Positions 10,902-64,000 of a stretch of DNA of 64,000 bases are shown piece by piece (the first letter of the stretch is position 1; every line of letters starts with the position of its first letter). The stretch comes from Mobula birostris. Taxonomy: Eukaryota. A model generated the notes under the pieces. That model was given only the letters and a program-made list of their open reading frames with translations. It searched no databases and had not been told where the DNA came from. The DNA is taken from the NCBI RefSeq assembly GCF_030028105.1, contig NC_092370.1, positions 82,294,969 to 82,358,968 of the forward strand. The letters run 5' to 3'. The position numbers and the translations under genes were made by a program.

Positions 10902-10927
10902 ACTACTTTTTTGCTTCTTCCCTCATT

Positions 10928-11878
10928 TTACACCCCTCTGCACTTGTTCCCATCCCCCTGCCACATTAGTTTAAATCCTCCTGAACAACAGTAGCAAACG
11001 CTCCCCCCCAGGACATTGGTTCCAGTCCAGCCCAGGTGCAGACTGCCCTGTTTGTACCGGTCCCACCTCCTCCAGAACTGGTTCCAATGCCCCAGAAATT
11101 TGAATCCCTCCCCCTTGCACCATTTTTCAAGCCACGTATTCATCTGAAATATCCTCCTATTTCTACTCTGACTAGCACATGGCACTGGCAGTAATCCAGA
11201 GATTATTACCTTTGTGGTCCTACTTTTTAGTTTATCTCCTAACTCCCTAAATTCACCTTGTAGGACCTCATCCTGTTTTTTACCTATATTGTTGGTACCT
11301 ATGTGCACCACGACCACTGGCTGTTCACCCTCCCACTCCAGAATGTCCTGCAGCCGCTCAGAGGCATCCTTGACCCTTGCACTAGGGAGGCAACATACCC
11401 TCCTGGAGTCTTGTTTGTGGCCGCAGAAACGCCTATCTATTCCCCTTACAATCAAATCCCCTATCACTATAGCTCTCCCATTCCTTTTCCTTCCTTCCTG
11501 TGTCACAGAGCCACCCATGGTGCCATGAACTCGGCTGCTGCTGCCTTCCCCCGATGAGACATCTCCCCCAACAGTATCCAAAACAGTATATCTGTTTAGG
11601 AGGGAGATGACCTCAGGGGACTCCTGCACTACCTGCCTACTATTACGCTGTTTAGTGGCCACCCATTCCCTTTCTGCCTGTGAGGCCTTTATATGTGGTG
11701 TGGCCAACTCACTGAACGTGCTATTCACGACTTTCTCAGCATCGCGGATGCTCCAGTATGAATCCAATCGCAGTTCCAGCCGCTCAATGCGATCTGCCAG
11801 AAGCTGCAGCTGGACACACTTCCTGCACACATAGTCGTCAGGGACACTGGAATATCCCTGATTTCCCACATGCTGCAG
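10928..11878 (-). pseudogene. CR1 ORF1 (zinc finger / leucine zipper / SGNH esterase), N-terminus truncated
   Basis: ORF track 10928..11893: DDYVCRKCVQLQLL, RAIVIGD, VVVHIGTNNIG, GSLHL. Confidence 0.9.
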
Positions 11879-12047
11879 GGAATTTTCCTTCATATTCTTT
11901 CACCACTATTATTAATGACAGCTCTGCTGCTGAAAGCCTATTTTTCCTTATTTATTTTATCAAAACTATCAATGAGAGTTCTCTTCTAAACATTTTTGCT
12001 GCATGGGAATAACCGCTCTAGATAACTGAGGTAATATATACTCAGTG

Positions 12048-12253
12048 CCATTTCCCCCTTCTCCAGCCCTGTATCTCTTTCACCAATGGACTTTCCAGCT
12101 CTTTTCTTCACCAGTCACCCCTTCCCAGTTTCACCTATCACCTTGTGGTTCTTCCTCCCCTCCCCCAATATTCTTACTCTGATTCCTCATCTTTATTTTT
12201 CAGTCCTGATGAAGGGTCTTGGCCAGAAACGTCGACAGTACTTTTGTCCATAG
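12048..12253 (+). mobile_element. Penelope-like element (PLE) terminal fragment containing a hammerhead motif
   Basis: Pyrimidine-rich tract followed by cagtcCTGATGAagggtcttggccaGAAACGTCgacag; the same sequence family recurs many times in the window. Confidence 0.7.
12201..12238 (+). ncRNA. Minimal type I hammerhead ribozyme motif (probably weakened)
   Basis: Core CUGAUGA at 12206-12212, GAAA at 12226-12229, palindromic ACGU in place of stem III, GUC cleavage triplet, stem I GUC/GAC. The stem II closing pair is mutated. Confidence 0.7.
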
Positions 12254-12269
12254 AATTATCGGGCACACT

Positions 12270-12405
12270 GCAGACGCAAGAGACTGCAGATACTGGAATC
12301 TGGAGCAACAAACAAGGTGTTGGAGAAACTCAGCAGGCCAGGCAGCATCTGTGGAGGAAAATAGACAGGCGACATTTCAGGTCAAGACCCTTCATTTGGA
12401 CTGGT
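12270..12405 (-). mobile_element. PLE-derived terminal fragment with a decayed hammerhead
   Basis: Reverse complement reads ccagtccaaatgaagggtcttgacctgaaatgtcg...cagatgctgcctggcctgctgagt. Confidence 0.65.
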
Positions 12406-14398
12406 TATTGGAATTACAGTATTTGTGGAGAGTAGAGAGTGAGAGAGATAGCAATTATAGGTTAATTTTATTATTACAACTGACACTGATTGTATTTTGA
12501 AGAATGACAGTGAACAAAGATGATGACACTTCAGATATTGGGGGAATCAGGTAGTCTGACGTGTTCAACACTATACGCTCATCTAAATTTTTAGACATCC
12601 CTGGCACCTTCTGTGTTACCAGAGTTTGAGGAGTGCAGATACTTTAGTTTCTAATAACTTGAAATGATAACTGGTTTGTCTTTTGACAGATGCTGTTTGA
12701 TTGGCTGAGTTCTTCCAGCATTTCTCTTTTTGCTTCAGTTATCTTGGTATTGGACCTGGGAGTGAGCGCATTTGAAGAGGCAAAAAGAGCATTTGACTAC
12801 AAAGAAAGACAATTTAAAATAGTGCAGTATACATAACTCAATAATCATTCTCTGTGTCAAAATGTAAATATTAGGTGAGACTACACAGAATGAAATTTTG
12901 AAATTGTGCAGTATAAGTCACCAATTAACTACTATGTAAAAAAAAAATCAATTATTAGCTGAGACTCCACTTGAGTGTTTGTGGATTGTTCAGTCAAATG
13001 TCTAAACTCACTCTAACCAGGAATACTCGACTAAAATGCCAAAGAATCCAGATTGTATCCAAGCACTGAAACATAGGATTTTGCAAAAAAAAATTAAGTC
13101 AATATAAAAACAAAAAAACTACATGTATGATAAACATGCACTTAAGCTTCAGCTTGTTAATGTGAATGTGAAACTTTCACATGTGATTTGTAGGGTTCTG
13201 AAATTCAGCATTAAGTTATAGATAGATGCTAAGTTAATTGCACTCATAGTATTGGAAACAGTAGCAATGAAAAGATGGCTTCCAGATGACTAACTGCCGG
13301 AAGGCCTTGTGTTCCTTCACCTTTGTCCCAGGCTGGAATGCAGTCAGAGGTTGGAAAGTTAAGATATGGGGTGTGGGGGAGGGGGGATTTTGGAGAAAGA
13401 GTTCGTAAAAATAAACCTGCAGTGGCTTCCACATGCACCTTTTTTTAAGGTAATTATTTTTCTTGCCCAATAAAATTACACACACCAAGGAGTATAGCGC
13501 TGTACTGTAACAGCAGGGTATTGAGCATCCATCTGGATGACAGTTGAGATTATTTTTGGCTGTTCTATCTACCTTTTGTACTGTAATTGTGTGGTTTTGC
13601 TGGCAGAAAGATAAAAACAAATGTGCAGAGCTGCTGTTCTGTAAATTGGGTTTAAGTCAATCAGGACCATCTGCTCTACTGTTATTTTCTTAGAAATGTC
13701 ATGCTAAGGTATTTGCATCTCTTTGCATTTACCTAACTACCAACGTCTGTATCTGAAGAGAAGGAAACAGCCTCCTTACACCACTTCTCTTACCTCACTT
13801 TTCCCAAACTGCGGAGATTGAGTCCCTTGCAGAATACTTACTAGCGGTATATACATGTGAAAAGGGACAAGAAAGCTGACCCACTGATCTTATCTTAACC
13901 AGTTCAATGCAACATGTTCTCACAGTGAGACCAAATCCATCCATCAATACACACTCATAATCTCTTGGAAAGTGACAAAAAGAAGTTTTGTCCGTTGCAC
14001 ATTGCCTGTGACCAGATAAGTTTCAGAAATATGCAGTAACTATGACCACTATTCACTTTTATTCCTTTACCATCTGTGCAGAGAGAAACAAAGTTAGTGT
14101 TTAAGGTCAAAGGCCTGCCACATGCCATGCCATGACTTAACACAAGTGTTAAGGGATTACAGCAAGGCACTTAACAAAATCATTTGTAGTCCAGTCATTA
14201 AGTAATGATGACAAAGCCCCAAATAGATTTTTTTAAAATTTGCTTAGTAGTCACATGGATGTAAGGACTTTTTTAAATAATAGTGAAAGCACAGTGTCTC
14301 ATCCTGAGATTCCTTTTCATGTATGTTACAGAAAGAGTATCAACAGTCTTTCCACTGTTACTTCCACTGGCTTCTTCAAATATGCCATGCACTTGCCA

Positions 14399-15895: not shown

Positions 15896-17287
15896 TCACT
15901 CTAGTTGGGAGGTGAGACTTGTGGTGGTGAAACAATCTCAGGTTCTGGGGCCTCCTCCGGGGTGGTTGTAGGAGTTGACTTTGGGACTGTAGAAGATGAT
16001 TCTGACAGCTCCGGACACCTTTCTTCTCTAACAATTGACTCTACTCTCCTCAACTGATCAATGTGTCATCTCCAGATGACATCAGATGCTATCTCCATTT
16101 TGTAGGAGAGTAGTCCAGTTCTGTCCTTAATCTTTAGAAGTACCCATTTTTGACCATCTCGGTAGTCCCTGGCCAGGACTGTTTGTCCAGGAGTGCAACA
16201 TCGAACCTTCTTGTTTGAGGAGCCCTCAATTTGTCTCAGCTGTTTGTCCTGCATACTTCTTCTGAGATTGGGTTTGAGGAAATACAAGTATGAGCACAAG
16301 GGATGACCCGGGAACAGCAGAGCTGGTGAATTGCTGGTTGTGCAGGTTGCTGCATTGTGACATGCAAAGAGGAGACTGGCGAGTTTCTGATTCAGTGTAT
16401 TGTGTTCTGTTGACATTTCTTGCAGCGTGTCCTTCGGAATCTGGACTAATCTTTCCGCCAAGCCATTTGTAGCTGGCTGCCCCGGTGTGGATGTAATAAA
16501 ACTTATTCCGTTCATTTTCAGGAATGACTGAAACTGTTCAGCAAGAAGCTGTGGTCCATTGTCAGTGACTAAGTGTTCTGGAACACAGGTCCATGAGAAG
16601 AAGCTTCTCAGCACATCAGCAGTGTGCGAGGCTATAGTGGGGGCTATTGTGAACACTTCTGGCCATAGAGTAGCTGCGTCCACTACTACCAAGAACTTTG
16701 TGCTCATGAGTGACCCAGCAAAGTCCACATGAATCCTCTGCCAGGGCAATGCAGGCCATTCCCAGGGATGGAGAGGTGCTGCTCTTGGCATGTTCTGAAT
16801 GTGTTGGCATACCAAACAATACATGGCAAGCTGCTTGATCTGCTGATCTCTCCCAGACCACCAGACAAAGCTTTGAGACAACACTTTTATTTTGACCACG
16901 CCTAGATGACTCCAACACTTTTGCTCTCACCTTGGATGGTACAACTCTCAATCCCTAGATAAGCAACTCCTGTAATGGGCAATTTCATCCTGACACAGGT
17001 AAAAATGGGGGAACTGGAATTTCTGCTGCACATTCCAGCCATTTTGGGTTGTCATGTACCCTGAGACAGTGTGGGCTCTTTTCTCGTTTCCCTTTGAATC
17101 AATAGGGAGACGTTTGATTTGCATTAGGGAGAATACGTCAAGAGGGGTGTTTGTAAATTTTCAGGTTATTTCCTTTTCCAAGCTTAAATGGGACAATCCA
17201 TCAGAATTTCCATGATTAGTTATCCAAGCAATACAGACAAAATGCTGGAGGGACTCAGCAGGCTAGGCAGATTTTCTCTTGTTTACT

Positions 17288-19473: not shown

Positions 19474-21825
19474 TAATAGAAACAAACCATATCTAGCAGG
19501 TCATTCAGTATCTGTGGAGGGACACAGAGTTCATGCCACATATTGAATTACCTTTCACTTGAACTGTTTATTGTTTCTCTCTGCAAGGTGCTGCCTGATC
19601 TACTGAATACTTCTAGCATTTTCTGTATTTTTTTCATATTTTTAGCATCTACCTTTTTTAATTTCAATTACTGCAGAAACTCGGGGTTAAGTCACATGTT
19701 CAAAGCCCCTTCTGACTTTCATACTCAGGGTGTTGTAGGTTCCATCCAGTTCCTGTCTTGTAAGTAGTGTGCCTAAAATATATGTAAAGACTTCTGCTCA
19801 GAAGTAGTGGAAGGTGTCTTAATTTTTTAATGTTCGTGACTGTCCAGTTGGTTTATTACCATGGTAAGATCTTAAAGCCTATCCAGTGAGGAATATTTTG
19901 AATTCCATCATAAATTGAAGTTTCAGTCTTGCATTTCACAAACGTGGACTGGTAATTGAATACTTTCAAGCTTTTTTTTGTCGAGTAAATTCTCCCAGCT
20001 TTTCCCCTTTTCACTTTCTTGATGATCATTTACTTACTTGGCTTTTATGAGTGTCATTTAACTTTGCTTCTGTGTCTTAATTTTAACCATAAATCCCCAT
20101 AACCATGGAGAAGTTCAGATGAACAGAGCTGCTATTATCATTCAGATTGGATTCATATTATTTATTGTCATGTACACCAGAGTGCAATGAAATTTTGTTT
20201 CTCACATGAAGCTCACATTGTAAACAGTGCAAGTGGTAATAATGAATACGGCAATAAATACAGGGATGAGTGCAAGAACAATGGAATGGTGCAAAATATA
20301 TCAGTGCAAAGTGTGGTAGTGTAAAAAGAAATGCTAAAGTGACATAATGGAAGAAGTAGAATTCAGGGTTTGAGAATGGGCAGCACCACTGGATAGGGGA
20401 TTTGAAAGAGGTGATGGTTCAGAGTTATCATATGCTGTTGATTCATAATGAATGCATATGATGAAAGTTTTAATTAAAAAATGAAACAATTAGTTGAAAA
20501 ATCCTCTGCATGTTATTGATACTGTAAAGCTTCAAATTGCTGCCCTGCTTATGCTCACTGCCCCAGTTGATATTTTTGCTTTAGTTATTCTTTAAATATA
20601 TTTCCAAAATTTTAGTCTAATTATATATACCAAAAAAGGTTGATATTATTCCCACATTTTGACTTTGTATTTTTTTAAAATTACTTAATGCTGAAGATCT
20701 GTTTTGTGTTAGATTAAATCAAAAAGAGTCTGAAAGAGAATGCCACTAAAATTTCAAAGTTATCAAATAAAACAAAATTAATGTCTGATATGCACAAGAG
20801 GGAAACTAGAATGAAAAGTGATGTCAGCTGTCTTCACAGTGCTTTGCAGCGTCTAGTCGGGGTAAATGTTGTGCTGCTGTACTTTACTGTATTATAGAAA
20901 ATAATAAAGTTCTCTCTTGTAAACTGAAAGCCCATGCCTGTGGACTGAATGGTCATTCTGCATGTTATTTCAAGCATTTTCAATGTTTGAGTAAAAGGAA
21001 CTACGGTTAGGTTATCTGCCTTATTATTTGCTGTTTTAAATTAATAAAGATGTACACAACAACATCAAAATGTCCTTAATGTCAGAAGTGTACAAAATCA
21101 TTATATGAGAGCAATCTGTAACTCCCTAGTCTCAGGTTTCTTTCATTTTATTTGAATTGTATTATCTTGTTTGCAGTTTCAAATGCTTTGTGGTAAAATT
21201 ACAGTGCAGGTAATAATTTGCAGATGTAACAATAGCTGTAATGTGAGCTGTATCCATTTACTGAAACTGAGCTGGGATCTGCTACTGGGTGCTGGGGGAA
21301 GGATGTGGTTTTTGCAAGTGTTGGGCTAAATCCTTTCTGTTCATCATTTTAGAAATGTGTTTTGAAGAAAATATGGCTTTTGTCTATGTTTAATTAGAGT
21401 TGGAATGATTATAGTGTGGAAGGAGATCATTCAGCCCATCAAGTCTGTATCAGTTCCATGTTACATCAATCTCATTTATCCCACTCACTTGGCCTCTCTC
21501 TGTATCCTTGTGAATTCTTTCCTTCCAAATACTTATCCATCTCCCTTTTGGATGCTATAATTGTATCTGCTTCCTCTGCTCCCCCTGCAGCGCATTCCAC
21601 ACCCTAACCACTGGCTGTGTAAAAAAAGTAATTCCTCATGTTAGTTTTACTTCTTTCTCAGCCACCTTCACTCTGTGCCTCTTTGTTCTCGACCTTACAT
21701 TAACGAGAACAGTTTTTTCCTATCTACTGTGTCTGTTACCTTTGTGATTTTACATAGCTGCGAACTCTCCTCACAACCTCCTCAGTTACAAGGAGAACAA
21801 ATCTGGTCTCTCCAGTAGTATATTA

Positions 21826-23431
21826 GAGTGGCATGCAAAAGTTTGGGCACCCCTGGTCAAAATTTCTGTTACTGTGAATAGTTAAGTGAGTAGAAGTTGA
21901 ACTGATCTCCAAAAGTCATAAAGTTAAAGATGACACATTCTTTTCAACATTTTAAGCAAGATTATTGTATTATTTTTGTTTTTTACAATTTTAGAGTGAA
22001 AAAAAAGAAAGGAGCACCATGCAGAAGTTTGGGCACCCAAACAGATTTGAGCTCTCAGATAACTTTTACCAAGGTCTCAGACCTTAATTAGCTTGTTAGG
22101 GCTATGGCTTGTTCACAATCATCGTTAGGAAAGGCCAGGTGATGCAAATTTCAAAGCTTTATAAATACGCTGACTCCTCAAACCTTGTCCCAACAATCAG
22201 CAGCCATGGGCTCCTCTAAGCAGCTGCCTACCACTCTGAAAATTAAAATAAATGATGCCCACAAAGCAGGTGAAGGCTATAAGAAGATAGCAAAGCATTT
22301 TCAGGTGGCCGTTTCCTCAGTTCATAGTGTAATTAAGAAATGGCAGTTAACAGGACTGGTGGAGGTCAAGTGGAGGTCTGGAAGATGAAGAAAACTTTCC
22401 GAGAGAACTGCTCGTAGGATTGCTAGAAAGGCTACGAGCAAAAGACCTTCAGGAAGATTTAGCAGACTCTGGAGTGGGGGTGCACTGTTCTGCTGTGCAG
22501 TGACACCTGCACAAATATGACCTTCATGGAAGAGTCATTAGAAGAAAACCTTTCCTGCATCCTCACCACAAAATTCAGTGTCAGAAGTTTGCAAAGGAAC
22601 ATCTGAGTAAGCCTGATGCACTTTGGAAACAAGTCCTGTGGACTGATGAAGTTAAAATAGAAATTTTTGGTCGCAATGAGCAAAGGTATGTTTGGAGAAA
22701 AAAGTGCGCAGAATTTCATGAAAAGAACACCTCTCCAACTGTTAAGCACGGGGGTGGATCGATCATGCTTTGGGCTTGTGTTGCAGCCAGTGGCACAGGG
22801 AACATTTCACTGGTAGAGGGAAGAATGAATTCAATTAAATACCAGCAAATTCTGGAAGCAAACATCACACCATCTGTAAAAAAGCTGAAGATGAAAAGAG
22901 GATGGCTTCTACAACAGGATAATGATCCTAAATACAGCTCAACATCCACAATGGACTACCTCAAGAGGCACAAGCTGAAAGTTTTGCCATGGGCCTCACA
23001 GTCCCCCGACCTAAACATCATCGAAAATCTGTGGATAGACCTCAAAAGAGCAGTGCATGCAAGACGGCCCAAGAATCTCACAGAACTAGAAGCCTTTTAC
23101 AAGGAAGAATGGGCGAAAATCCCCCAAACAGGAGTTGAAAGACTCTTAGCTGGCTGCAGAAAGCGTTTACAAGCTGTGATACTTGCCAAAGGGGGTGTTA
23201 CTAAGTACTGACCATGCAGGGTGCCCAAACTTTTCCTTCAGGCCCTTATCCTTTTTTGTTATTTTGAAACTGTAAAAGATGGAAATAAAAAAGTAATCTT
23301 GCTTAAAATATTAAAGAAGTGTGTCATCTTTAACTTTATGCCTTTTGGAAATCAGGTCATCTTTTACTCGCTTAGCTATTCACAGTGACAGAAATTTTGA
23401 CCAGGGGTGCTCAAACTTTTGCATACCACTG
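21826..23431 (+). mobile_element. Complete Tc1-like DNA transposon (IR/DR type, DD34E), 1606 bp, inactive
   Basis: TA TSDs at 21824-21825 and 23432-23433; ~200-bp TIRs with internal direct repeats (GCAxAAGTTTGGGCACCC). Confidence 0.95.
22206..23211 (+). pseudogene. Tc1 transposase pseudogene
   Basis: Paired-like domain MGSSKQL...GEGYKKIAK...RSGR*. Catalytic WTDE / QDND / SPDLNIIE, with 34 residues between the second D and E. Premature stops and a small deletion. Confidence 0.92.
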
Positions 23432-23830
23432 TAAAATCCTGCAGATGTTATAAATCTATAATGAAAATAGAAAATGCCAGCAACAGTCAGCAAGTGAGGC
23501 AGCATCTTTAGAAAGGGAAACATAGTTAACATCTCAGGTCAAAGGACTGGTATTGAATATTTTTGATATTGTCTGTCTATTTCTGTGCCTCCCAGATAAC
23601 TTAAGTCCCTAATCCTTTTCCTTAAGTGTCAGGTCTAGAACCGTACAAGTCATGGGGCAAGCATAGGATGATAGGATCTCAAAATCTATGTATACCATGC
23701 ATGGCTGAAGCCTTTCCACCCACTGATCAAAAGTAAATTCATTGTATGCTGGTCATATATGAGCTGAGAGAACTTGTGGTGATACAGCTTTGGCAATGTC
23801 TTCTGTGTGTCAAGATTTCTTGACATATCG

Positions 23831-26659: not shown

Positions 26660-27225
26660 AACAGTGTTAGTTTGCCCAGTGCTTCAGGTTAATAACCTTT
26701 GACATTGACCTGAAACATTATCTCTGTTTTTCTGAAAATAAAAATAGAAATGGCAGATGCTGGAAATCTGAGACAAAACCAGAAAATACTGGAAGAACTC
26801 AGTTGGTCAGGTAGTATGTGTGAAAAGAAAAACAATTAACATTTTAGAGCCTTTAGAGGATCTCAGACTGAAATATTAATTTGTCACTCTTCCCACAATT
26901 GCTGGCTGATCTATTGAGGTTTCCAAGCATTTTCTACTTTTATTAATTCTGTTACTCTTGCCACAGATGCTGCCCGATCTGCCAAATATCTCCAGCATTT
27001 TCTGTTTTATTTTATATTTCCTGCTTGTGTAATTTTTAGCGTTTAAATAAAAGAATAAGTAGTGTAACTGGCTCCTAATATCACAAATTAAATCAAATTC
27101 CTGCATGTGTTATGAGGTCTTGACCTGAAACATCAACTCTCCCTTTGCCTCTACAGATATTTCAGGACCTGCTGAGTTATTGCAGCAGTTAATTCTGTGC
27201 TTCAAGGTCCATCATCTGCTGTCTC
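26660..27225. mobile_element. Cluster of decayed PLE-derived fold-back fragments
   Basis: Several copies, on both strands, of acagatgctgcc...ctgctgag..ctccagcattttctg and gacctgaaacat. Confidence 0.55.
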
Positions 27226-28648
27226 TTTTCCCCCACATCATGGGTTAGCTCTGCAATGTGTTTAAGTAATTCAAAACTGGCTTATTATTGCCCCATGTAC
27301 TGTACTCAGATAGAACGAGAAGCTTTTGTTGCATGCCACTAGAGTGATCATTCCATAACCAAGTACATCGAGGTAGAGCAAAAGGGAAAACAAAAATAGA
27401 ACACAGAATATAGTGTGTTTAAAATACACTAATTCCAGAGGTATTTATAGCCAGTAACACATTTAAGGTAAAAGAATTAATCAAGGATTATGGTAAAAGA
27501 ATGACACTCTGGTTTTGACCACATATATAACACTTATAATCTACACAGATTTTGTTTGGAAATGTTTTCTTAAATCAGTCAACTTCTCCTTTCTTCATAC
27601 TTCTGCTGTGCTTGACGAAGGCAAATCTGTATGATTTTTCACATTCAGGTTCCTATTATTGGCCCCTAATGTCTATGTTAGCCAAGATTGAGTGGCCAGG
27701 ATGAACGTGCTTTCCTGTACAGTGCCATTGTAGGAAATTATAGTTTTAAATATCTTTCTCAGAGTATACTGCCCTTTTTAAAGTTCAAATACACTGTGTG
27801 TTTATTGGAACATAGCTTGGAGATTAATGGTGTTATAACAAAAAAATGATACATGATAAATGATGAAATGATAATTGTTGATGTTGCTGTTCCTGCATTA
27901 CCAAGAAGCATGGCTAAGGAACAATTAAAATATATAACTGTTTCGTTAAATACTTATGCTGGATAATTGCACAAGACAGAACTAATAAATCTTGCAAATG
28001 TTGTTGCTTGGGGTCAAATTTTAAAAACTAACCATTACTTAAACAATTTAGTATAAAGCCACCTTTGTTCGGGTTCCAGAGTACATGGTTGACTGCAAGA
28101 CCCTTGGTCTAGTAAGTTGCTGTGTAATACCCAATGATCAGGCAGCTACAGATATGCACAAGTTTGAATTAGTTGTAATTATTCCCCAAAGATCTTGATC
28201 TATGGACTGAGTCTAAGTTGCAAAACCCATATGTGAGTGTGAAATCCAAGCTATGTGCTTATATGTAAATAGAGCCATCTGTTATATAAATACACCTGTA
28301 CAATATTAGATAGGAAATAGAATAACACTTTAATTTCTTCTGTAGAATTATTAATGGCTCTGTCATTTCCTATGAGATCAATTCAAGTGGATCTTGTTAA
28401 CACTGGTAATGTTTAATAATTTCTTCACAGCATTAGTACGGTATTACTGTGTCCACATAGTTAAAGAAGAAAATACTTTAGACAGAGCAAAAGTAACAAT
28501 GGAGATATAAACAGATCTTGTAGAGTCATAGAATCGTTCAGCACAGAATCAGGCCCTACCAACCTCCATGACCATCTTGACCATCTACACTAATCCCATT
28601 CACCTGCATTAAGGCCATATTCTTGTGTGCCTTGTTTATTGAAGTGCC

Positions 28649-28822
28649 TGAAGACACACAGAACTGCAGATGCTGAAATCTGTAGCAAAAAACAAACTGC
28701 TGGATGATCTCAGGCAGAATCCGTGAAGGGAAACGGACAGGCCAAGCCTGAAATGTTGACAGTCTAATAACCTCTGCAGATGCTGCCTAGCTTGCTGACT
28801 TCCTCCAGCAGTTTGTTTTTGC
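28649..28822. mobile_element. PLE-derived fold-back element with TSD
   Basis: Inverted arms agcaaaaaacaaactgctgga / tccagcagtttgtttttgct. Flanking repeat tattgaagtgcc (28637-28648) / tatttaagtgcc (28823-28834). Confidence 0.7.
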
Positions 28823-29054
28823 TATTTAAGTGCCAGTCTGATTCTCTCTTAACTGGAATGGCTAACTCATTCCATCACCTGGTCGGGCAGCAAATCCCAG
28901 GTATCTCCCAATCTCTGTGTGAAATATCTAGTCACAAAATCAAATACGGTCTTTCCAATATCGTTAGCTAAGGATTTTAAAATTGTTTCCATATCCACAT
29001 GCTTAAGGAAAATACTTACTTGGATGTCTTGGGCATTTGCCATAGCACTTATCG

Positions 29055-29225
29055 ATGGCATGGCAATTGCTGTGGTCTCATGGCTTCAGGGACCTACAGT
29101 CAATTATGACCTTAGTTGTCTGTATGGAGTTAGTGTGATTTCCCTGTGACTGCATGGGTGTCTTCCTGATGTTCTGGTTTCCTCCCACTTCACAAAGATG
29201 TGCTAGTAGCTTAATTGGCAACTGA
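29055..29225 (+). mobile_element. Decayed V-SINE
   Basis: V-domain ...ccctgtgactgcatgggt...ggtttcctcccac...caaagatgtgc. Confidence 0.6.
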
Positions 29226-29250
29226 CAGGATTTCTCTGCTGGGAGCTGGC

Positions 29251-29730
29251 ATCAGAATCAGAATCAGGTTTATTATTACTGACATAAGTTGTGAAATGTG
29301 TTTTTTTGCAGCAGCAAAACAAGTACAGGACAAGACATAAAAGTTACTAAAAGTTATGAAAATTAACATAAAGTGCAAAAAATGAATAATGAGATAATGT
29401 TCGTGCATTCATTGACTGTTCAGAAATCTGAAGGCGGAGAGGAAGAAGCTGTTCTTAAAATGTTGAGTGTGAGTCTTCTGGCTCCTGTTCAACACACACA
29501 AAATTCTGGAGGAATTCTGCTAATCAGGCAGCTTCAATGGAGAGAAATAAACCGTCGAAGTTCCTCTCCATAGATGCTGCCTGACCTGCTGAGTTCCTCC
29601 AGCATTTTGTGTGTGTTACTCTGGAATTTCAGCATCTGTAGAAACTCTTGTGTTTATGACTTCTGGCTCTTGTACCTCACAGTGTTAGTAACAAAAAGAG
29701 GGCATGTGTCAAATGGTGAGAGTCTTTAAT
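29251..29730 (-). mobile_element. Rex1/Babar 3' fragment hosting a fold-back insertion
   Basis: (ATTCTG)n tail at 29251; the host sequence resumes after 29660. Confidence 0.7.
29489..29659. mobile_element. PLE-derived fold-back element with a 14-bp TSD
   Basis: Inverted arms; TSD cttctggctcctgt (29475-29488) / cttctggctcttgt (29660-29673). Confidence 0.8.
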
Positions 29731-30220
29731 GACTTGGAAGGTCAAATGGTAATCCAAATATGCTTGTAGCCTCTTGTAGGTAGGGCCCATTTAATTCCTT
29801 GTACCATCATCCTCCCTGTTTTCTCTGATCTTTTACTGCTGGATCCTGGCCCCATGCTGATCCCACAGCTCCCTAACTGTCCTCCCAGATGATGATATTC
29901 CTACCAAAGCCTGGAAGTAATCTTTGAGGTTTCCATTACTCTGGACTGAAAATCTATTTCTTTATTTCTCTAACTGCGACTCTCAGCTTTAGTCCAGGCG
30001 CCCATGATTTACAAGTTCCTCAGCTGGTTTATTCATGGCCTGTGTTTAGTTGAATGAGGCTAATCTTTTGTGTACAGCAGAGTTTTACAAGAAGACACAC
30101 ATTGGTCTCTCCACACTCACTAGTCCGCTGTGCCTTTTTAAGCAATGAAATTATCTAGGCTCCTGTTTTGAGTGTACCAAGCTCTCTAGAATATATTGTA
30201 AATGTAACAGATTGTATATA

Positions 30221-30422
30221 AAGCACACAAAATACTGGAGGAACTGTCAGGCAGTATCTGTGGAGGGAGATAACAGTCGACTTTTCAAGCCAAGATACTT
30301 CATCAGGCCTCTGTCTTGACTTGAAACATTGACCATTTAGTTCATTCCATAGATGCTACTGAGGTCCTCCAGCATTTTGTGTGTGCTCCTCAAGGATTCC
30401 ATTATTTGCAGAATCTCGTGTC
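30221..30422. mobile_element. PLE-derived fold-back element with a minus-strand hammerhead core
   Basis: Minus strand reads cCTGATGAagtatcttggcttGAAAagtcgactg; arms gcacacaaaatactggagga / tcctccagcattttgtgtgtgc. Confidence 0.65.
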
Positions 30423-30920
30423 TGCGATTTTATTATATATTTGGAGAAGCCATTTACAAGTTAGTGCATTTTCTATGCAAGATTTAATTCTAACATGGAA
30501 GGAGGTTTTAGATACTGTATAATTTCAAGTACTCATGAGTTGAAATCCAATATTTTTTTTCCTCTACTTATTTAGAAACTAGCATCTTTGTTGGCTTGAT
30601 TTACTCCTTTATCCTTGTAGCTTATCCATTCTTTTCTCCCTGCTGTTCAACTTGTTCAGAAGTCCCACCTCCTATTCCATCAATCTTTTTCCATCTCCAC
30701 CTCCTTAGCACTCATATTGGTTAATGGGGATCATCTGTTTTACCTTTAAATCTGCTGTTTTCACTCTTCTTAAAGGAGACTGAAGTGATTGGGTGAAGCT
30801 CAGTGGGGATTCATAAGGGGCCAGTCACAATAGCGAGTGTAGTGCAGGAAAAGATGCATCAGTGGTCCAAGCCGAAGGTATCTGTAGCCTCCTGGTAAGC
30901 CTCAGGCTTGCTCAGCTCAC

Positions 30921-31396
30921 ATTCTATTGGTGTCTGCTACCCACAGCAGGCTGAGGGTAGCAGACACCAACAGAATCAACAAACTCATCCGTAAGGCCAG
31001 TGATGTTGTGGGATGGAACTGGACTCTCTCACGGTGGTGTCTGAAAAGAGGATGCTGTCTAAGTTGCATGCCATCTTGGACAATGTCTCCCATCCACTAC
31101 ATAATGTACTGGGTGGGCACAGGAGTACATTCAGCCAGAGACTCATTCCACCGAGTTGCAACACAGAGCGTCATAGGAAGTCATTCCTGCCTGTGGCCAT
31201 CAAAGTTTACAACTCCTCCCTTGGAGGGTCAGACTCCCTGAGCCAATAGGCTGGTGCTGGACTTATTTCATAATTCACTGGCATAATTTACATACTACTA
31301 TTTAACTATTTATGGTTCTATTACTATTTATTATTATGGTGCAATTGTAACGAAAACCAATTTCCCCCGGGATCAATAAAGTATGACTATGACTTC
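30921..31396 (+). mobile_element. Rex1/Babar 3' fragment with a 5' snap-back hairpin
   Basis: RINKLIRKAS...SHPLH...CNTERHRKSFLPVAIKVYN; aataaa plus (ATGACT)n tail. Confidence 0.85.
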
Positions 31397-32043
31397 GACT
31401 TCGTCTAGGGGAAGCAGCCTTCGGCCCCACCAAACTGGGTAATCAAGTTTGTGTAGATGCTGTGTGATGTACCCCACCATGCCAAATAACAGACAGCACA
31501 CCATATGCGATTAAATGATTACACTTTGTAAGTATTTCTTGGTGATTGGTTAGTAGAAACAAGTACAACGAAAGTGCCAAGTCAGTAACTCTATCAGTTC
31601 TGTGCACAAATAATTAGTTGGAGCTCTTAGAAAACTGGGTCTCCCTTTCCTTCAGTCGATGTCCTCCGAACTCCGCCGACCCTTGAATGGGATCACCCTT
31701 GGTGGTCGACCAAACGCTCCACACAAATCTGTCCTTGTCTCCTCTCCTCGCCAAAGACCCTGGCCTTGGACTCCCGCTCGGGGTCCATTCCTCGCCCATC
31801 TTACAGCATCTCTCTCATCGCATCTCCTCTCTCTGTCTCCATCACGCCTTCTCCCCAAAGCCCGCGAAAACAGTAGCTTACAGACACACAAGAAAGAATA
31901 ACGTCTATCCCAATTGGTTAGCAAATGAATACAATTCTCGTTATCAGTAATTATAACCCAAACAAGCTGCTACCGTTAACTCAGCAGTTAACATTACAGA
32001 GAAGCCATTTTATTATAACATAACAAAGAAGCCATTTTATTAG

Positions 32044-32256
32044 TGCAAACACGAAGAAATCTGCAGATGCTGGAATTTCAAGCAACACACATAAAAATTG
32101 CTGGTGAACACAACAGACAAGGCAGCATCTATAGGAAGAGGTACAGTTGACGTTTCGGGCCGAGACCCTTCATCCCTTCTGCCCGAAACGTTGACTGTAC
32201 CTCTTCCTATAGATGCTGCCTGGCCTGCTGTGTTCACCAGCAATTTTTATAGTTAT
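32044..32256. mobile_element. Young PLE-derived fold-back element
   Basis: ~70-bp near-perfect inverted arms centred in the hammerhead region; flanking direct repeat agccattttattag (32030-32043 / 32257-32270). Confidence 0.85.
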
Positions 32257-34157
32257 AGCCATTTTATTAGCCCTAGCAGTAACATAAAAGAAAGAACCCC
32301 TTACATATCTCATACATTTAACTTGGCCAAAACAATGGTATTGGTATTGCTGTTGGTTTATTATTGTCATGTGCACTGTGATACAGTGAAAAGATTTTGT
32401 TTGTATGCAATCCAAACAGATCATGTCATACATTATTACATCGAGCTAGTAAAAAGAAAATAAAATGCAGATTTAGTGTTGCTGCATATATTTCATCCTG
32501 CATTCATCTTAAATTATGTTCAACCATGCTGTCTCCACCTCAAACTTAATTCTTTGCTCCCCATCCATATGAACCCCAGGTCTTTATTTTCCTTATCTTA
32601 TGGACCTTGAATTTAATCTTAATGCTTGTGCCAATTACTTCGACCATGTGTATTTGACTTTTGTGGAATTTCCTCTTTATATTTCTTCCTTCACCATTCT
32701 CCTTTAAAAAGCCTTTTTAAATACATCCCTTTGACCAAGTTTTCAGCTGCCCTTCCACTCTCTTTCTTTATGGTCTGGTGTCTGTTTTCCATATGCTTGC
32801 CTGTAAAATGCCTTGGGATTTTTCCTTTAGATTAAAGGCATTGCACAACTCCGAGTCATTGCTGCTGCAGTGCACTGGTGCTCTCTCTCTGTGTATGTGA
32901 AACAATGTGCTTGAGTGCAAGCCTGCTATGCGCAGGGGTTCACCATTCCTGGTGCAAGGAGGCCTAAAGTGGTTGCAACAAATGCACTGGGTAGAATGGC
33001 AACACTGAATGATGCAGCTGAGCATTACTGAAAAGAAGAGCTGAGGGTGATCCAACAGCTTATGTTCATAGAGCACTTTGAACACTGTAAAAGGAGACTG
33101 AAGTAATGGGGTGAAGATCATTGTACTCTTAGAAGTTTTAGCAGACAGGATGTTGACTGTAGATCCTCTGATGCAATGCATGCCATAGAAGACCCAAAAC
33201 TTGTTCAGAGAGGTATATAATTAAACAGAATGCCAGAGTTTGGGTGCATGGCTACCAGTGATGCAGCGCAGGTTGTCAGATTTGGCGCAGCTCAGAGTAA
33301 AGGGTTGGAGGGCTGGAGATGTTTTTTTTTACAGAAGTGGGGGTGGCAATTGGACTATTGGTAAACTTGAAAGCAGCCACAAAGATTTCAAATAATGAAT
33401 TCTAAACTATTGGTTCAACAGTTAACCATATGGAAAAATCAGTGCTGCCTTATGCAGTTCATTGGGTGTCGGTAGAAATGAATGAACTCTTGGGAGTTTT
33501 GACAAGTTTTCTTTTCCTCATCCTTTGATTAATTTTGCTGTGCAAGTCACAGTGCTCTGGATTCAAATTGAACAATCTTTCTTATGGTGAAAAGGTGCCC
33601 TGGCATTTCATCAGCATATTTCCAAATGCAATGCTTGTGTGTGCAGAAGTAGTTGCCCATGTCTTCATACTGAATGAAGAGATTCCTTCACACAATCATA
33701 TTGGCAATTTTTTTTTTCTGAGAAAGCAGTGGAACTGCTTAAGGAGCGAGGGAAGACAGAGACTCCCATAACGTGTAAGAAGTAGCTCATCAAGGACTTG
33801 AATTGCCAAGGCAAGGCATTGCAGGCTATAGGCTAGTTAGGATTAATACTGTACTATGGGTACTTGATGGCTAACATGGATGTGGTGGACTGAAGGGCCT
33901 GTTTCTGAGCTGTATGACTTTGCACACTTTGTCCTGAACATGAGGAAGATTATCAAGTTCTGAAAAAGAAACTAATACTAATTACAGAGGGAAAGCTGAA
34001 ATTGAGAAACAGAAGGTGCCACACAATGCTTAAAGCAAATAATTGAGGGTGATTTTCTGCCCCAACAACTTTTAAGATGCAGATAAAATGAGAAAGGAAA
34101 AATCAAACAAAAGAGAAAGTGTATAATGGATTGGAAAGCAAGGTAGATGGAATAAAA

Positions 34158-37811: not shown

Positions 37812-38261
37812 GTGAGAGAGTCTTTGGGATTTGTAAGATGTTGGACGAACCCCCTGGCTTAAGTCATCTCAAACAATGTCTCTACTTCCTTCTCATGAAG
37901 TATATTTTGGATTTGACCAAGCTGCAACATGAAAATATATCCAACTCTCCATTGGCTATCTTAAATTTATCTCCTCCAGTTATCAATCCTTCATCAGTAG
38001 AAACACTTTCTCCCTCATAAACCCTTCATCCATGTGAAGCTTCTATTAAATCCAGTTTTGATGGTTATATTGCCAAAATCGCTTTCTAAATCAGGTTATG
38101 GAATATTCAATTCTCTTTTGGATTTTATGCAGTCTTTGAAAATGTTCTTTAATTCTATACAAAACATTCTTAACTCCCAAAAGACATCATTTGCATCAGA
38201 GTGTTTGAAGACCTGCTTGAAATTTATCCCCTTTGTGTGATCACTAGTAACACGCAGGATG

Positions 38262-38462
38262 TGAAAACCTGCAGATGTTGGAATTTAGAGCAACACACAA
38301 AAAATGCTGAAGGAACTCAGTAGGCCAGGCAGCATCTATGGAAAATAATAAACAGTCAATAGTTCGGGCTGAGACACTTTATCAGGACAGGAAAAGAAGA
38401 AGAAGGTGGGGGAAGGGGAGGAAGAAATACAAGGTGGTAGGTGATAGGTGAAACTGAGAGAG
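38262..38462 (-). mobile_element. PLE terminal fragment with a decayed hammerhead
   Basis: Reverse-complement homologue of 12048-12253 plus downstream arm. Confidence 0.7.
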
Positions 38463-39789: not shown

Positions 39790-41065
39790 ACATGGACGCA
39801 CTTTCGCAAACTCCCACAACCCACCAATGATCCTGTGTTTTCAGTATCTGAGGTGGAAGTGAGAACATCCTTCAGGAGGGTGAACCCACAGAAGGTATCT
39901 CACCCAGGTGAGGTACCTGGCTGAGCAATAAGGACCTGTGCTCATCAACTGGATGGAGTATTCACTGAGATCTGTGACCTCTCGCTTTGGCTTCAATTGT
40001 ACTGGTACCTAAGAAGAACATGATAACCTGCCTCAATGACTGTCTTCCAGTAGAACTTACATCCAGTGATGAAACATATCAACTCTTGCCTGAGAAGCAA
40101 CTTGGATCTCCTCCAATACTTTATAATTTATTGTCGCCAAACAATTGATACTAGAACGTACAATCATCACAGCGATATTTGATTCTGTGCTTTGTGCTCC
40201 CTGGAGTACAAATCGATAGTAAATATTAAAAATTTAAATTATAAATCATAAGTAGAAAATAGAAAAGGGAAAGTAAGGTAGTGCAAAAAAACCGAGAGGC
40301 AGGTCTGGATATTTGGAGGGTACCGCCCAGATACGGGTCAGGATCTGTTCAGCAGTCTTATCACAGTTGGAAAGAAGCTGTTCCTAAATCTGGCCGTACG
40401 AGTCTTCAAGCTCCTGAGCCTTCTCCCGGAGGGAAGAGGGATGAAAAGTGTGTTGGCTGGGTGGGTCGTGTCCTTGATTATCCTGACAGCACTGCTCCGA
40501 CAGCGTGCGGTGTAAAGTGAGTCCAAGGACGGAAGATTGGTTTGTGTGATGTGCTGGGCTGTGTTCACGATCTTCTGCAGCTTCTTCCGGCCTTGGACAG
40601 GACAACTTTCATACCAGGTTGTGATGCACCCTAGAAGAATGCTTTCTACGGTGCATCTATAAAAATTAGTGAGTGTTTTAGGGGACAGGCCAAATTTCTC
40701 TAGCTTTCTCAGGAAGTAAAGGTGGTGGTGGGCCTTCTTGGCAGTGGACTCCGCTTGGTTGGACCAAGTCAGGTCATTTATGATATTGACCCCAAGGAAC
40801 TTAAAGCTTTTGACCTGTTCCACTTGCGCACCACCAATGTAAATGATCACCCTTTTCTATTTTCTATTTATGAATTATAATTTAAATTTTTGATATTTAC
40901 TATCGATTTGTACTCCAGGGAGCGCGAAGCGCAGAATCAAATATCACTGTGATGATTGTACATTCTAGTATCAATTTGCCTACTGGCACAATAGGTCCAC
41001 AGCAGGTGCCATTTCATTGGTTCTTCACCCGACCTTGGAACATCTGGACAGCTAAGATTCATACA
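39790..41065 (+). mobile_element. Older Rex1/Babar RT fragment, split by a younger antisense Rex insertion
   Basis: SVSEVEVRTSFRRVNPQK...PKK....CLND; LDLLQ|FAY resumes after 40976. Confidence 0.7.
40118..40976 (-). mobile_element. Young Rex1/Babar 3' insertion with an inverted copy of its own 3' UTR at the 5' junction
   Basis: Intact 170-aa C-terminal ORF at 40338-40850; 40850-40976 is the reverse complement of 40143-40269. Confidence 0.9.
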
Positions 41066-42065
41066 TGAGAATCAAATTCCAAAGTACATTTATTATCGAA
41101 GTATGTATACATTATACAACCTTGAGATTCAGCTCCTTACAGATAGCCACAAAACAAAGAAACCCAATGCAACTGGTTAAAAAAAGACCATCAAGCACAC
41201 AACGTGCAGAAAACAAAAACAAATCATGTAAACAATGAAAGCAAACAAACAACTGAAGTTCACAAATGTGAGTCCACAGCGACAAAGCCAATCATCACTG
41301 CAAACGATTCAGCAGTCCATTAGTTGCAGGGCACAGGCTCATCTCAGCGCAGAGATGAGTGAACCTTGCAGAGCAGTGAGCTAAACTGACCCATCCCGTG
41401 CCTCCGGCCCTGACACCCTGTCCTTTTCAATTTGGCCTGAACTTTAAATGGCCTAAACTTTGGGTAATTTCTTGCTTAACCTATGGTCTCAGTTTTAAGG
41501 ACTTCATCTCATGTTCTTAATATTTATTACTTATTTATTTATTATTATTGTTATTATTTCTTTTTTTCTTTCTTTTTGTGTTTGTACAGTTTGTTATCTC
41601 TTGCACACTGGCTGTCTGCCCTTTTGGTGTGGTTTTTCATTGATTCTATTATGGCTATTGGATTTATTGAGTATGCCCACAAAAAATGAATCTCAGGTTT
41701 TTTATGGTGACATAAATACACTTTGATAATAAATGTACTTTGAACTTCGAAACTTCCATGCCTGTTTGTCATGGATAAAAGCAGAACAGCAGAGAAGTTG
41801 AAAATTTAACATTAAAACATAAACCAAAATTCTCAAGCTGGTCAGGCAGTATCTATAGAGAGAGATACTGAGTTAATGTTTTAAATCACGGACCTTTCTT
41901 TGGAACTGAGAAAAGCTAAAGCTAAAATAAGGTTTAAGGTACAGAGGAAGGAGAGGAGAGAGCAGCCTTAGTTGGAATTGAAAAAGAGAGAAATTGCCTT
42001 TAAACTCACGAGAGAGCATAGGCCATCAACTTTTTGCTGTTGATGTTTTTGTAGCAGGCAATTTA

Positions 42066-49581: not shown

Positions 49582-50950
49582 TCAGAATCAAATTTATTAT
49601 CTCTGCCATGGCGTAAAATTTGTTGTTTTTGCAGCAGAAGTACAGTCCATAAGACATTAAAATCCATAAGTTGTGAAAAAATAGTGTAAATAAAATGGGA
49701 TAATGGTAGTATTTATGTGTTCATGGACTATTCAGATATCTGATGGCAGAAGGAAACTGTTTCTAAATCATTGAATGTGGATCTTCAGACTCCTGTAACT
49801 CCTTCCCCAAAGGCAGTAATAAGAAGAGAGCATGTCCTGAAATGTCGACTATTTATTCCCCTTCATTGATGCTGCCTGACCTCCATACTGACTTGGTACA
49901 GCCATTTAGAATTCTTTCTGGTGTAAATCTATCGAAATTTATAAGAGTTCTTGGTGATATATCAAATTTCCTCAAACTCCTAATGAATTATAGTCAACTG
50001 GTGTGCCTTCTTTGTGATTGCACCGATGTCTTGGGCCCAGGATAGAATCCCTGAGGTGTTGACACACAGGAGTTCCGTGGTCTTGCTGATGTTGAGTGTG
50101 ACTTTGCTGTTGCGACACCACTCAAGCAGCTGATCTATCTCACTTCTGTGTGCCTACTTGTCACCATCTGAGAGTCTACCAACAGAATGCTGTCATCAGT
50201 ATATTTATAGGTGACACTTGAGCTGTTCTTAGCCATACAGTCATGAGTGTAGAGAAGGTAGAACAATTTGCGAAGCACACATCCTTGAGGTGCACCTGCG
50301 TTGATTGTCAGCAAGGAGGAGATGTTATTTCTGATCTACATTGACTGTTTATCCTGGTGAGGAACTCAAGGATTCAGTTGTAGAGGGAGTTACAGGGGCC
50401 AACATTTTGAAGTTTGGTCAGTAGTACAGAGGGAATGATGATGTTAGACACTGATCTATAATCGATAAACAGCAGCCTGACATGTGTCTTGCAGTTGCCT
50501 AGGTCCTCCAAAGTGAATGGAGAACCAGTAAGATTGCATCCATAGTAGACTTGGAGCATGGCGAGGCAAATTGCAGTGGGTCCAGGTCCATGCTTGGGCA
50601 GCAGTTATGCCAAACCTCTTGAAGCACTTCATTACAGTAGATGGGTGTGCTGCTCACGTGTCTGTTTGTCAGTCTGTGTGTAGTTTTTCATTGATACTAT
50701 TGTATTTCTTTGTCCTACTGTGAATGGCTGCAAAAAAAATGAATCTCAAGATAGTATAATGTGACATATACATACTCTTGGATAATAAATTGACTTTGAA
50801 TTATTGGGCGATAATCATTGAGGCAATTTTTCCTGCTCTTTTTGGGCACCAGAATGATTGCAGCCCTTTTGAAGCAGGTGAGAAACAGCCAACTGGTTGG
50901 CACAGGTTTTTAATACCCGCGCAGATACGCAGCCAGGGCCCAATGCCTTG
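49582..50950 (-). mobile_element. Decayed Rex1/Babar RT fragments with small nested pieces
   Basis: ILVPKKSRKNCLNDYRP, HVRLLFIDY and FNxIIPS motifs; 3' UTR with (ATTCTG) tail near 49582. Confidence 0.75.
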
Positions 50951-51816: not shown

Positions 51817-52155
51817 CTGTTGTTGTGTAGCTTGCCAAGCTGCTAGTTAGCTTGCAGGCGTTTCGTTACCCTGCTAGGCAACATCATCGGTGCAACTTTG
51901 AATGAAGTGTTGATGATCTACATTGTTCGGCTTTTATGTGTCCTGTGATTAGTCAGTTTGTGTGTGTGTGTGTGTGTAAACGGACTAATCACAGGACACA
52001 TAAAAGACGAACTATGTAGATCACCAACACTTCATTCGAAGTTACACCGATGATGTTGTCTAGCAGGGTAACGAAACGCCTGCAAGCTAACAAGCCAGCT
52101 TGGTGAGTCACTCAACAACAGCATCCTCAACCCGAGGTACAAACTTTTTTCAACA
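51817..52155. mobile_element. PLE-derived palindrome (second family) with a (GT)9 spacer and a hammerhead-like motif on each strand
   Basis: Arms 51817-51959 and 51978-52121 are about 90% reverse-complementary. Each contains CCGATGA-t-stem II-GAAACGCC. One arm has a ~30-nt extension. Confidence 0.8.
51960..51977. repeat. (GT)9 microsatellite
   Basis: Read directly from the sequence. Confidence 0.95.
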
Positions 52156-62977: not shown

Positions 62978-63178
62978 AGACGCAAGCAACTGTAGATGCT
63001 GAAATCTGGAGCAATGAAAGATCTGCTGAAGGAACACATTGGCTTGGGCAACATCTATAGGAGGATAGGGATTGTTGATGTTTTGGACCCTGATGCAAGG
63101 CTTCGATCTGAAACATTGAAAATTCCTTTCCTCACACACATGCTGCTTGGCCTGCTGATAGGTCCAACAGATAGTTTA
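62978..63178. mobile_element. Decayed PLE-derived fold-back element
   Basis: Inverted arms around cCTGATGCaaggcttcgatctGAAAC; degenerate 15-bp flanking repeat (12/15) at 62963-62977 / 63179-63193. Confidence 0.6.
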
Positions 63179-63525: not shown

Positions 63526-63615
63526 GTTGCTATGATGGGAATCACTAGTTCTGGCCTCTAGCTATGAATCCAGTAAATTAAACACCAAGATAAATAAAAT
63601 CTTAGCCTCCAGTAA

Positions 63616-63653
63616 CAGTCAACATTTCAGGCCAATATTCTTCATCAGGACTG
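63616..63653 (-). ncRNA. Hammerhead-like motif, antisense to VPS13B
   Basis: Minus strand reads cagtc-CTGATGA-agaatattggcct-GAAA-tg-tt-gactg: perfect 5-bp stem I, intact core, decayed stem II. Confidence 0.55.
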
Positions 63654-64000
63654 AGAATTGTTGGCCTTATCACTAAAGCCCAAGAATTTGACGTTTCTTA
63701 CTTGGGTTTTTGTTTCAGGTCACAATCCTGAACAATGTCCTTACTTGACTGGTCTAGTCCAGGCTATCTGATCAGCATCAGGTTCCTACTCAAATATATC
63801 AGAACTACTGCAGGGGAAAAAAAAGTACAGCAATTAACTGCTGGAAAATTGATTGTTCCTTGTTCCAAAACAGACATTTGAGATACATGGGAATGGATGT
63901 ATGTAATTCTGTCTGATTATTTTCAGAATTTAGTATTGTTACAGTTCAGTGAATGTTATGAATAGCATATCTTCAATTGCATATGTTGAAGATAAATCTT

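Follow-up and report, generated by a model that had tools for sequence, protein, structure and literature searches.

The genome of Mobula birostris contains, within a stretch of 64,000 nucleotides (C1:82294969-82358968, C1 being contig NC_092370.1, in a 4.0-Gb assembly; hereafter the window), a series of short hairpins that carry parts of a minimal hammerhead ribozyme, which raises the question of what these hairpins are and how they are formed. A preliminary description, made from the sequence alone, interpreted them as non-autonomous, retrozyme-like RNAs of Penelope-like elements (PLEs), with a hairpin that is rebuilt at each integration by template switching near the ribozyme. The hairpins are the last 100 to 140 nt of an autonomous PLE, not a separate retrozyme or miniature inverted-repeat transposable element (MITE) family. 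We further consider it likely (with a probability of roughly 0.7) that they represent 5'-truncated head-to-head insertions of the PLE 3' end, generated by twin priming on one uncleaved RNA. The direct observations that carry this reading are a terminus shared with the PLE, two fixed outer ends, a rule by which these ends are paired, a single target site duplication (TSD) enclosing both arms, arms that are not nested in one another and a pile-up of inner ends at approx. -33. Positions are counted from the predicted hammerhead cut (GUC/GACUG), with +1 for the base that follows it and negative values 5' of it; we use arm for a single copy of the terminal sequence, with the 3' end of the element as its outer end and the point of 5' truncation as its inner end.

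The ribozyme and the autonomous element that shares it

The minimal hammerhead consensus proposed previously is real; a 34-mer had 6,161 exact matches in the genome (control, 0), and a structure descriptor yielded 154 matches in 1.35 Mb of selected loci and 0 in the reversed sequence. An Rfam scan of the window gave no hammerhead match at E ≤ 1, and minimal PLE ribozymes evidently escape Rfam. In the predicted fold of the monomer, helices I and II form and the core mispairs. An older relative family appears to have changed the closing pair of helix I from C-G to U-A, as T was found opposite in 13 of the 15 copies with A at +1. Among 23 copies compared for this compensatory change, 15 had U-A and 5 had C-G, with 3' strands that were partly fixed by the search patterns; the covariation score was above that of 500 out of 500 shuffles, subject to the relatedness of the copies and to search-pattern bias. 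As in other metazoan PLE hammerheads, we observed a type I core in which an extra nucleotide precedes helix II and a real helix III is missing, a palindromic 15.2-16.2 region, and copies that are mostly solitary, with some opposite-strand pairs 100 to 700 bp apart (PMC4209133). Helix II has 3 to 5 bp here as compared to 7 to 8 bp in Schistosoma (PMC4209133). A much older relative family (L237-L256) with a U-A closing pair and a helix II region of 13 nt includes several copies that start near the 5' edge of the ribozyme and at least one fold-back.

An autonomous partner encoding a reverse transcriptase (RT) and a GIY-YIG nuclease, which the preliminary description had named as the element to look for, was found. 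Many of 30 ribozyme-anchored loci extend 5' into a pyrimidine-rich 3' untranslated region (UTR) and then into an open reading frame (ORF) with an RT, a Cys linker and a GIY-YIG domain; the unit measures approx. 3.5 kb and its single ORF ends approx. 320 nt before the predicted cut. Full units were recovered at two loci (L158 and L168) among 20 long copies examined, in the order partial upstream repeat, ribozyme, arm, tail, an ATG approx. 35 nt further on, an ORF of approx. 1,016 codons, 3' UTR, ribozyme, arm and tail. Both thus have partial-tandem pseudo-long terminal repeats (pLTRs), and 13 of 30 copies bearing the junction between repeat and ORF extend upstream of the cut by over 90 nt. The open frame of L158 (1043 aa) matched Pfam GIY-YIG with 23.1 bits (cut-off 22.6) and RVT_1 with E = 6.5 × 10-4, which is below the Pfam cut-off, and contains the DKG and YIDD motifs. 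A CCHH motif and two Cys between GIY and YIG were recognized by eye in L057, L157 and L159; one Cys is mutated in L158. The linker of L158 and its relatives carries C-X4-C-X2-C, a form of the CX2-5CxxC motif used as the criterion for the Neptune and Nematis clades in the RT-endonuclease (EN) linker (PMC8557442). By this linker motif the element would fit the Neptune/Nematis type, the two clades not being told apart. In L157 and L159, a proline/serine-rich segment of variable copy number is located upstream of the RT in the N-terminal region of the ORF, and is absent in more distant homologues.

A protein search with the PLE ORF returned 103 scored matches with 95-100% identity; the closest homologue was a protein of Chiloscyllium punctatum (71%), and none of the homologue matches was a named PLE reference. 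No meaningful match was obtained in a sequence search of the PDB, the best 150 of 340,012 candidates in a genome search with RVT_1 gave no lead to the PLE, and tblastn returned no autonomous PLE ORF in the window. The element is covered by contigs assembled from four runs that we guessed to be RNA; these contigs break off at the same two 3' ends and are uninformative on starts, cleavage and expression. A 32-mer of the young arm had 58,441 exact matches in the genome and one of the older arm had 9,243, in agreement with the earlier suggestion that the family is a major component of this genome; only 119 exact matches were found for the junction between repeat and ORF. The older subfamily also continues into a related ORF (approx. 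55-65% identity).

These features are largely those of EN-bearing (EN+) PLEs of the Neptune/Nematis type, i.e., a single ORF with RT and GIY-YIG, the DKG, Cys-linker and CCHH motifs (PMC8557442, PMC3846280), partial-tandem pLTRs, an inverted 5'-truncated copy, a tail of 30 to 40 bp at one end, a minimal hammerhead in the pLTR and TSDs of variable length. The inverted pLTR, the tail and the minimal hammerhead are thus known PLE traits. Published accounts describe an inverted 5'-truncated copy and a tail of 30-40 bp that is often confined to one end, by a mechanism called undefined (PMC8557442), inverted pLTRs with 8-10 bp TSDs and a tail on one of them, for which self-priming was proposed (PMC3846280), and minimal hammerheads in PLE pLTRs, mostly solitary and in some cases as opposite-strand pairs (PMC4209133); PMC6155905 was also among the literature compared. 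Unlike the EN+ PLEs described, most copies in M. birostris are extremely short and resemble MITEs, and the most common TSD length (13-14 bp) differs from the 8-10 bp of the rotifer examples.

Outer ends, inner ends and alleles of the two arms

Insertions were sampled without regard to shape. The young sample comprised the 100 exact matches of the young arm that come first on C1 (within its first 5.2 Mb), representing 91 insertions, and the older sample the first 90 of 100 listed matches of the older-subfamily arm. Partners were called if they were adjacent, inverted and reached +45; in the older subfamily, 3 of 32 partner calls did not cover the arm and were removed, leaving 29 fold-backs. Loci L001-L030, which had been picked for their likeness to a hairpin with one tail, were excluded from the one-tail counts, and L002-L030 were used for allele concordance only. 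A census of 889 kb used looser criteria and overlaps the young sample of 100 arms.

Outer ends in the young sample were bimodal, at approx. +67 and +104, and the difference is the PLE tail; the asymmetry of 30-45 nt previously noted between the arms is therefore real and equals this tail. An inverted partner was called in 38 of the 91 insertions, and all 38 of these fold-backs pair one tail arm (approx. +104) with one short arm (approx. +67), for which we calculate a chance probability of approx. 0.5^38. The 53 arms for which no partner was called comprise 28 tail and 25 short arms. Six additional insertions with a partner missed by the script, and a seventh, pair a tail arm with a non-tail arm by eye. 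If each strand chose its site independently, only about 50% of pairs would have exactly one tail; the choice must thus be coupled, and a single RNA with two start sites provides the simplest coupling.

A single TSD encloses both arms in 34 of the 38 young fold-backs (control, 0.2%), and TSD length ranges from 8 to 17 bp (13-14 bp in 31 of 52). Overlaps of at least 2 nt between element and TSD were more frequent than expected by chance at both outer ends (10 of 23 short and 7 of 21 tail ends; 24 of 68 ends could not be cleanly mapped), as would be expected if both ends are priming junctions. The arm read from the left flank is inverted, which is the polarity of a cDNA primed at the top-strand nick. 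Given the very high copy number and the resulting frequency of neighbouring copies, two independent insertions side by side, or a later inversion or recombination between copies, could be invoked to explain the pairs. However, the single TSD around both arms, the concordance of alleles between arms (see below) and an orientation of 67 head-to-head vs. 6 tail-to-tail pairs in the census, where 59 of the 67 have exactly one tail arm, make such an origin very improbable.

As compared to the outer ends, the inner ends were highly variable (+64 to -1875). Among 100 young arms, 24 ended at -35 to -29, 12 at -28 to -18, 2 at -5 to +5 and 47 beyond -100; the 5' ends thus cluster at the 5' edge of the ribozyme (approx. 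-33) and avoid the predicted cleavage site (2/100). While 44 of these arms end at or 3' of -45, 56 extend past -45 into the PLE 3' UTR, with 36 reaching into the ORF. In five cases the tail arm stops at +43 to +64, near the second start site. The lengths of the two arms covary (both ending at or 3' of -45 in 22 fold-backs, both further 5' in 10 and mixed in 6; P = 1.3 × 10-4, Fisher's test). Among 30 of the 119 junction-bearing copies, 7 start at -33 to -23, 0 at -34 to -91, 13 further upstream and 10 between -15 and +101, and no start was located within 5 nt of the cut.

An inversion centre in or beside the ribozyme, which the preliminary description took to be invariable, applies to the five hairpins it named in the window but to only 22 of the 38 sampled fold-backs; in the other 16 an arm ends outside the ribozyme, by up to 1.9 kb. 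The proposal that each hairpin is rebuilt at insertion is borne out by the variable centres and individual TSDs; template switching near the ribozyme, conversely, does not provide a general explanation, given these 16 fold-backs, the non-nested arms described below and the avoidance of the cut. Likewise, hairpin shape and high copy number might suggest a MITE or a fold-back DNA transposon with fixed inverted repeats, but the variable centres, unequal arms, TSDs of 8-17 bp and continuity of the arms with the RT/GIY-YIG ORF leave this possibility next to no credibility, in line with the earlier assignment to PLEs.

In 17 of the 38 young fold-backs the short arm exceeds the tail arm in the 5' direction by more than 5 nt and by up to 1.9 kb, while the tail arm extends further in 12 and the arms are level in 9. 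Filler bases were present at 20 of the 38 inner junctions, and overlaps of at least 2 nt at 10 of the 18 filler-free joins (P = 1 × 10-4). These data bear on a self-priming or snap-back origin, in which the cDNA folds (or an antisense RNA primes itself) and is copied back, and a nuclease later trims one tail. Self-priming has been proposed for head-to-head PLE structures of rotifers (PMC3846280), with the tail ascribed to nuclease resolution (PMC8557442), and is consistent with alleles shared between arms and with the enrichment of junctions in the palindrome-rich ribozyme region. However, the lack of nesting in 17 of 38 fold-backs argues against simple snap-back copying, which would need an extra trimming step to leave the tail-less arm longer; moreover, junctions with filler do not show a clean turn-around, and target and element overlap at both outer ends. 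We thus regard self-priming as unlikely.

Two pairs of fold-backs at unrelated sites have near-identical junctions and different TSDs, i.e., L118 and L124 (C1, approx. 3.94 and 4.10 Mb; inversion junctions -324/-374, with the tail and short roles swapped) and L119 and L130 (C1, approx. 3.95 and 4.34 Mb; -229/-490 to -498). This recurrence suggests a preference for joining at short inverted homologies or a source that was copied again. In L122 (C1, approx. 4,035,000), a 490-nt piece of the ORF is located between two fold-back arms that both end at approx. -33.

The two arms of a fold-back share subfamily alleles (18 of 135 site-pairs were discordant as compared to 31-45% expected per site) as well as rare alleles (25 common to both arms as compared to 4.7 expected), which indicates that they derive from one RNA or one source locus. 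Allele spectra were also alike between 44 short and 36 ORF-bearing arms (P = 0.58; four sites only, with low power), so that no separate lineage of short RNAs is needed. This comparison bears on the retrozyme-like interpretation, under which a short non-autonomous RNA (approx. -33 to past the tail) would be transcribed from mini-masters and mobilised in trans by the PLE. Such an RNA could account for the 44 of 100 arms that end at or 3' of -45 and for the 119 junction matches as compared to 58,441 arm matches, and L207, L232 and L236, which run from approx. -33 to -27 up to +170 to +588, could be transcribed as mini-masters. On the other hand, the long copies also start at -31 to -23, so that a full-length RNA explains the peak; complete helix I is kept in only 5 of 22 short hairpins; the 5' ends avoid the cleavage site; and the hairpins are not tandem repeats. 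Together with the shared allele spectrum and the 56 arms that run into the PLE 3' UTR, these findings speak against a distinct retrozyme-like RNA, which we consider improbable.

The likeness to non-LTR retrozymes lies in the type I hammerhead, the relationship to PLEs and TSDs of more than 4 bp (PMC7229834; bioRxiv 10.64898/2026.07.22.740005). Retrozymes are, however, defined as tandem repeats in these sources, with head-to-tail units that each have a ribozyme and with circular RNA, as compared to head-to-head stubs mostly without a complete ribozyme here. Head-to-tail tandem units with complete hammerheads were absent from the hairpins studied (a search of the remaining genome for tandem arrays was not part of the analysis).

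Probable coordinated priming on both target strands

Twin priming, which we favour over self-priming and a separate short RNA, could proceed as follows. The GIY-YIG nuclease would make a staggered cut of 13-14 nt, and the two nicked target strands would both serve as primers on a single uncleaved RNA of the element, where reverse transcription would begin at a separate fixed start site for each, possibly with two RT units (perhaps a dimer), one per start site. The copy primed downstream may stall near the upstream start site or displace the other cDNA; the PLE RT is not known to have RNase H. The two cDNA 3' ends would then be joined head-to-head via short homology or filler bases, and loss of one cDNA would leave a single arm. 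At the 5' edge of the ribozyme, the shortest cDNAs may run off the template at an RNA 5' end that could be the transcription start, as would be the outcome if the 5' repeat copy were used for priming. The resulting hairpins are probably dead ends.

The -33 edge is most likely the 5' end of the RNA, the alternative being a strong RT stop; it sits in what we take to be an initiator-like motif. In either case, the positions of the inner ends suggest that the template RNA was not cut by the ribozyme. An internal promoter has been described in Penelope of D. virilis (PMC2377424). A spliced template was also considered, as a pyrimidine tract and AG at the ribozyme edge recall D. virilis, and is not favoured, since the TSD directly abuts most single arms that start at approx. 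-32 and leaves no room for an upstream exon.

Twin priming is known from LINE-1, in which the second target strand primes an inverted cDNA, the junction has short homology and there is one TSD, as in the hairpins studied here. The two segments of a LINE-1 insertion correspond to different portions of the RNA, and the second site varies in position, whereas here the arms usually cover the same sequence and the start sites are fixed. A closer parallel is Poseidon of Anolis carolinensis (PAc), for which an in vitro study found that both strands are cut and extended, that two RT start sites bound the tail, that uncleaved RNA is used and that a dimer is predicted (PMC11167929). As in PAc, two start sites bound the tail; the use of an uncleaved template, the lack of RNA ends at the ribozyme cut and the cutting and extension of both strands are suggested for our element by its genomic copies. 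PAc belongs to the Penelope/Poseidon clade and its ORF starts inside the ribozyme (PMC11167929), as compared to a first ATG approx. 35 nt past the tail here.

Several points weigh against coordinated priming on one RNA. In the parts of the PAc study considered here, no pairing of strand with start site is reported and the strands do not differ in start site, so that the one-tail rule was not predicted (PMC11167929). Shared alleles are equally expected from a single RNA molecule and from two RNAs of the same source locus. A TSD was adjacent in only 18 of the 53 arms without a called partner, and both samples are non-random, being first exact matches on one contig end. An extra G at -33, as would derive from a cap, was tried and rejected (59 G vs. 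41 A, mostly explained by homology to the TSD or partner arm in 30 loci read). In the older subfamily, 20 of 29 fold-backs pair tail with short by script (P = 0.03) and approx. 23 by eye, with genuine short-short (L268 and L295) and tail-tail (L288) pairs; its inner ends form a broader peak (13 of 90 at -36 to -29), and 7 of 90 are near the cut. TSDs there were found in 9 of 32 partner-called and 0 of 58 single arms (control, 0.4%).

A stronger version holds that PLE integration is obligatorily a two-primer reaction, with start sites 37 nt apart on one RNA, one per nicked strand, the 5' edge of the ribozyme as RNA start and a ribozyme that stays uncut during copying; we give this version even chances. 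If true, a single step would account for both the PLE tail and the inverted pLTR, and young, countable records of the reaction would number tens of thousands in this genome.

Copies in the window and implications

A profile built from natural copies detected 24 arms in the window and 0 in its reversed or shuffled sequence; family matches make up 4,055 bp (3.9%) of the 104,000 bp that the window and 40 kb of flanking sequence comprise. All five hairpins named previously were detected as head-to-head arm pairs, four of them of the older subfamily, and a core scan found an intact ribozyme in none of the five. The young fold-back (32044-32256) has its tail arm on the left (5' end approx. -26, without the start of the CUGA core) and its short arm on the right (approx. 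-15 to +57); its left TSD copy (32030-32043, + strand) matches 32257-32270 at 14 of 14 positions. The older-subfamily fold-back at 28649-28822 has lost most of the ribozyme core and consists of a tail-bearing arm on the - strand (left) and a short arm on the + strand (right), that at 29489-29659 has a short left and a tail right arm joined near the cleavage-site palindrome without a ribozyme core, and that at 30221-30428 has a short left arm (5' end approx. -32) with a degenerate hammerhead core, scored at 30306, and a tail right arm (5' end approx. -18). An old degenerate fold-back at 62978-63178 has its tail arm on the left and its short arm on the right.

The match counts reported for the direct repeats around four of these hairpins were reproduced, and their significance varied. 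Besides the 14/14 repeat, we found 13/14 (29475-29488, + strand, vs. 29660-29673), 11/12 (28637-28648, + strand, vs. 28823-28834), which is above the 95th percentile of shifted controls and below the control maximum, and 12/15 (62963/63179), which is below the 95th percentile and thus not above control. The flanks of hairpin 30221 contain no convincing TSD.

A sixth, old fold-back (26752-26932; tail arm left, short arm right) is followed by two arms on the + strand (26954-27030 and 27116-27226). Ten of the 11 single-arm relics listed previously were detected, that at 44050 being the exception. The single PLE 3' end at 12053-12254 (+ strand, approx. 190 nt) runs into the pyrimidine-rich 3' UTR and carries the best-preserved minimal hammerhead of the window (12201-12239; scored at 12206 in the core scan, which also found a ribozyme in a single arm at 63648). 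Tail-bearing single arms are located on the - strand at 12275-12404 (5' end approx. -34), 23434-23550 (old; 5' end approx. -34) and 38261-38454 (to approx. -111 in the PLE 3' UTR), and an old arm at 41836-41954 (- strand) runs to approx. -85 in the 3' UTR; the copies at 12053, 38261 and 41836 reach into the 3' UTR of the older subfamily. The remaining pieces are a degenerate hammerhead fragment (63614-63657, - strand) and arm fragments at 17222-17270 (- strand), 19561-19651 (+ strand, old), 49832-49904 (+ strand) and 12658-12723 (+ strand), the last being absent from the earlier list.

Other repeats in the window include a palindrome (51856-52085) that is nearly perfect, spans at least 220 bp and has a (GT)n loop; it is unrelated to the PLE arm, has weak Rfam scores for miRNA families far under the gathering thresholds and possibly represents another fold-back or MITE family. 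A LINE-like element (7998-11899, - strand) is split into several frames and has an ORF1 with an esterase (GDSL) domain and an APE endonuclease. We also observed a Tc1/mariner-type DDE transposase fragment (22504-23208, + strand), an integrase-like frame of an LTR retroelement (16069-16926, - strand; rve and H2C2) and two non-LTR RT fragments, at 58478-59014 (+ strand; weak RVT_1) and 40341-40856 (- strand; judged by eye).

The origin of PLE inverted repeats and of the optional tail has been called undefined (PMC8557442), with self-priming proposed in print (PMC3846280) and one in vitro system available (PMC11167929). For the one-tail, non-nested rule or for this family we found no published statement on Penelope elements in the sources consulted, and Arkhipova 2006 and Repbase/Dfam may cover both. 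Integration models can be told apart by the one-tail rule, the non-nested arms and the edge at -33, all of which are simple to measure in a genome; the measurements can be repeated here on tens of thousands of copies as well as in other PLE-rich genomes, and this countable test favours coupled two-strand priming over self-priming. Overall, the tiny fold-back is the typical product of this abundant PLE, and its stubs are easily mis-annotated as MITEs, unknown repeats or miRNA-like hairpins.

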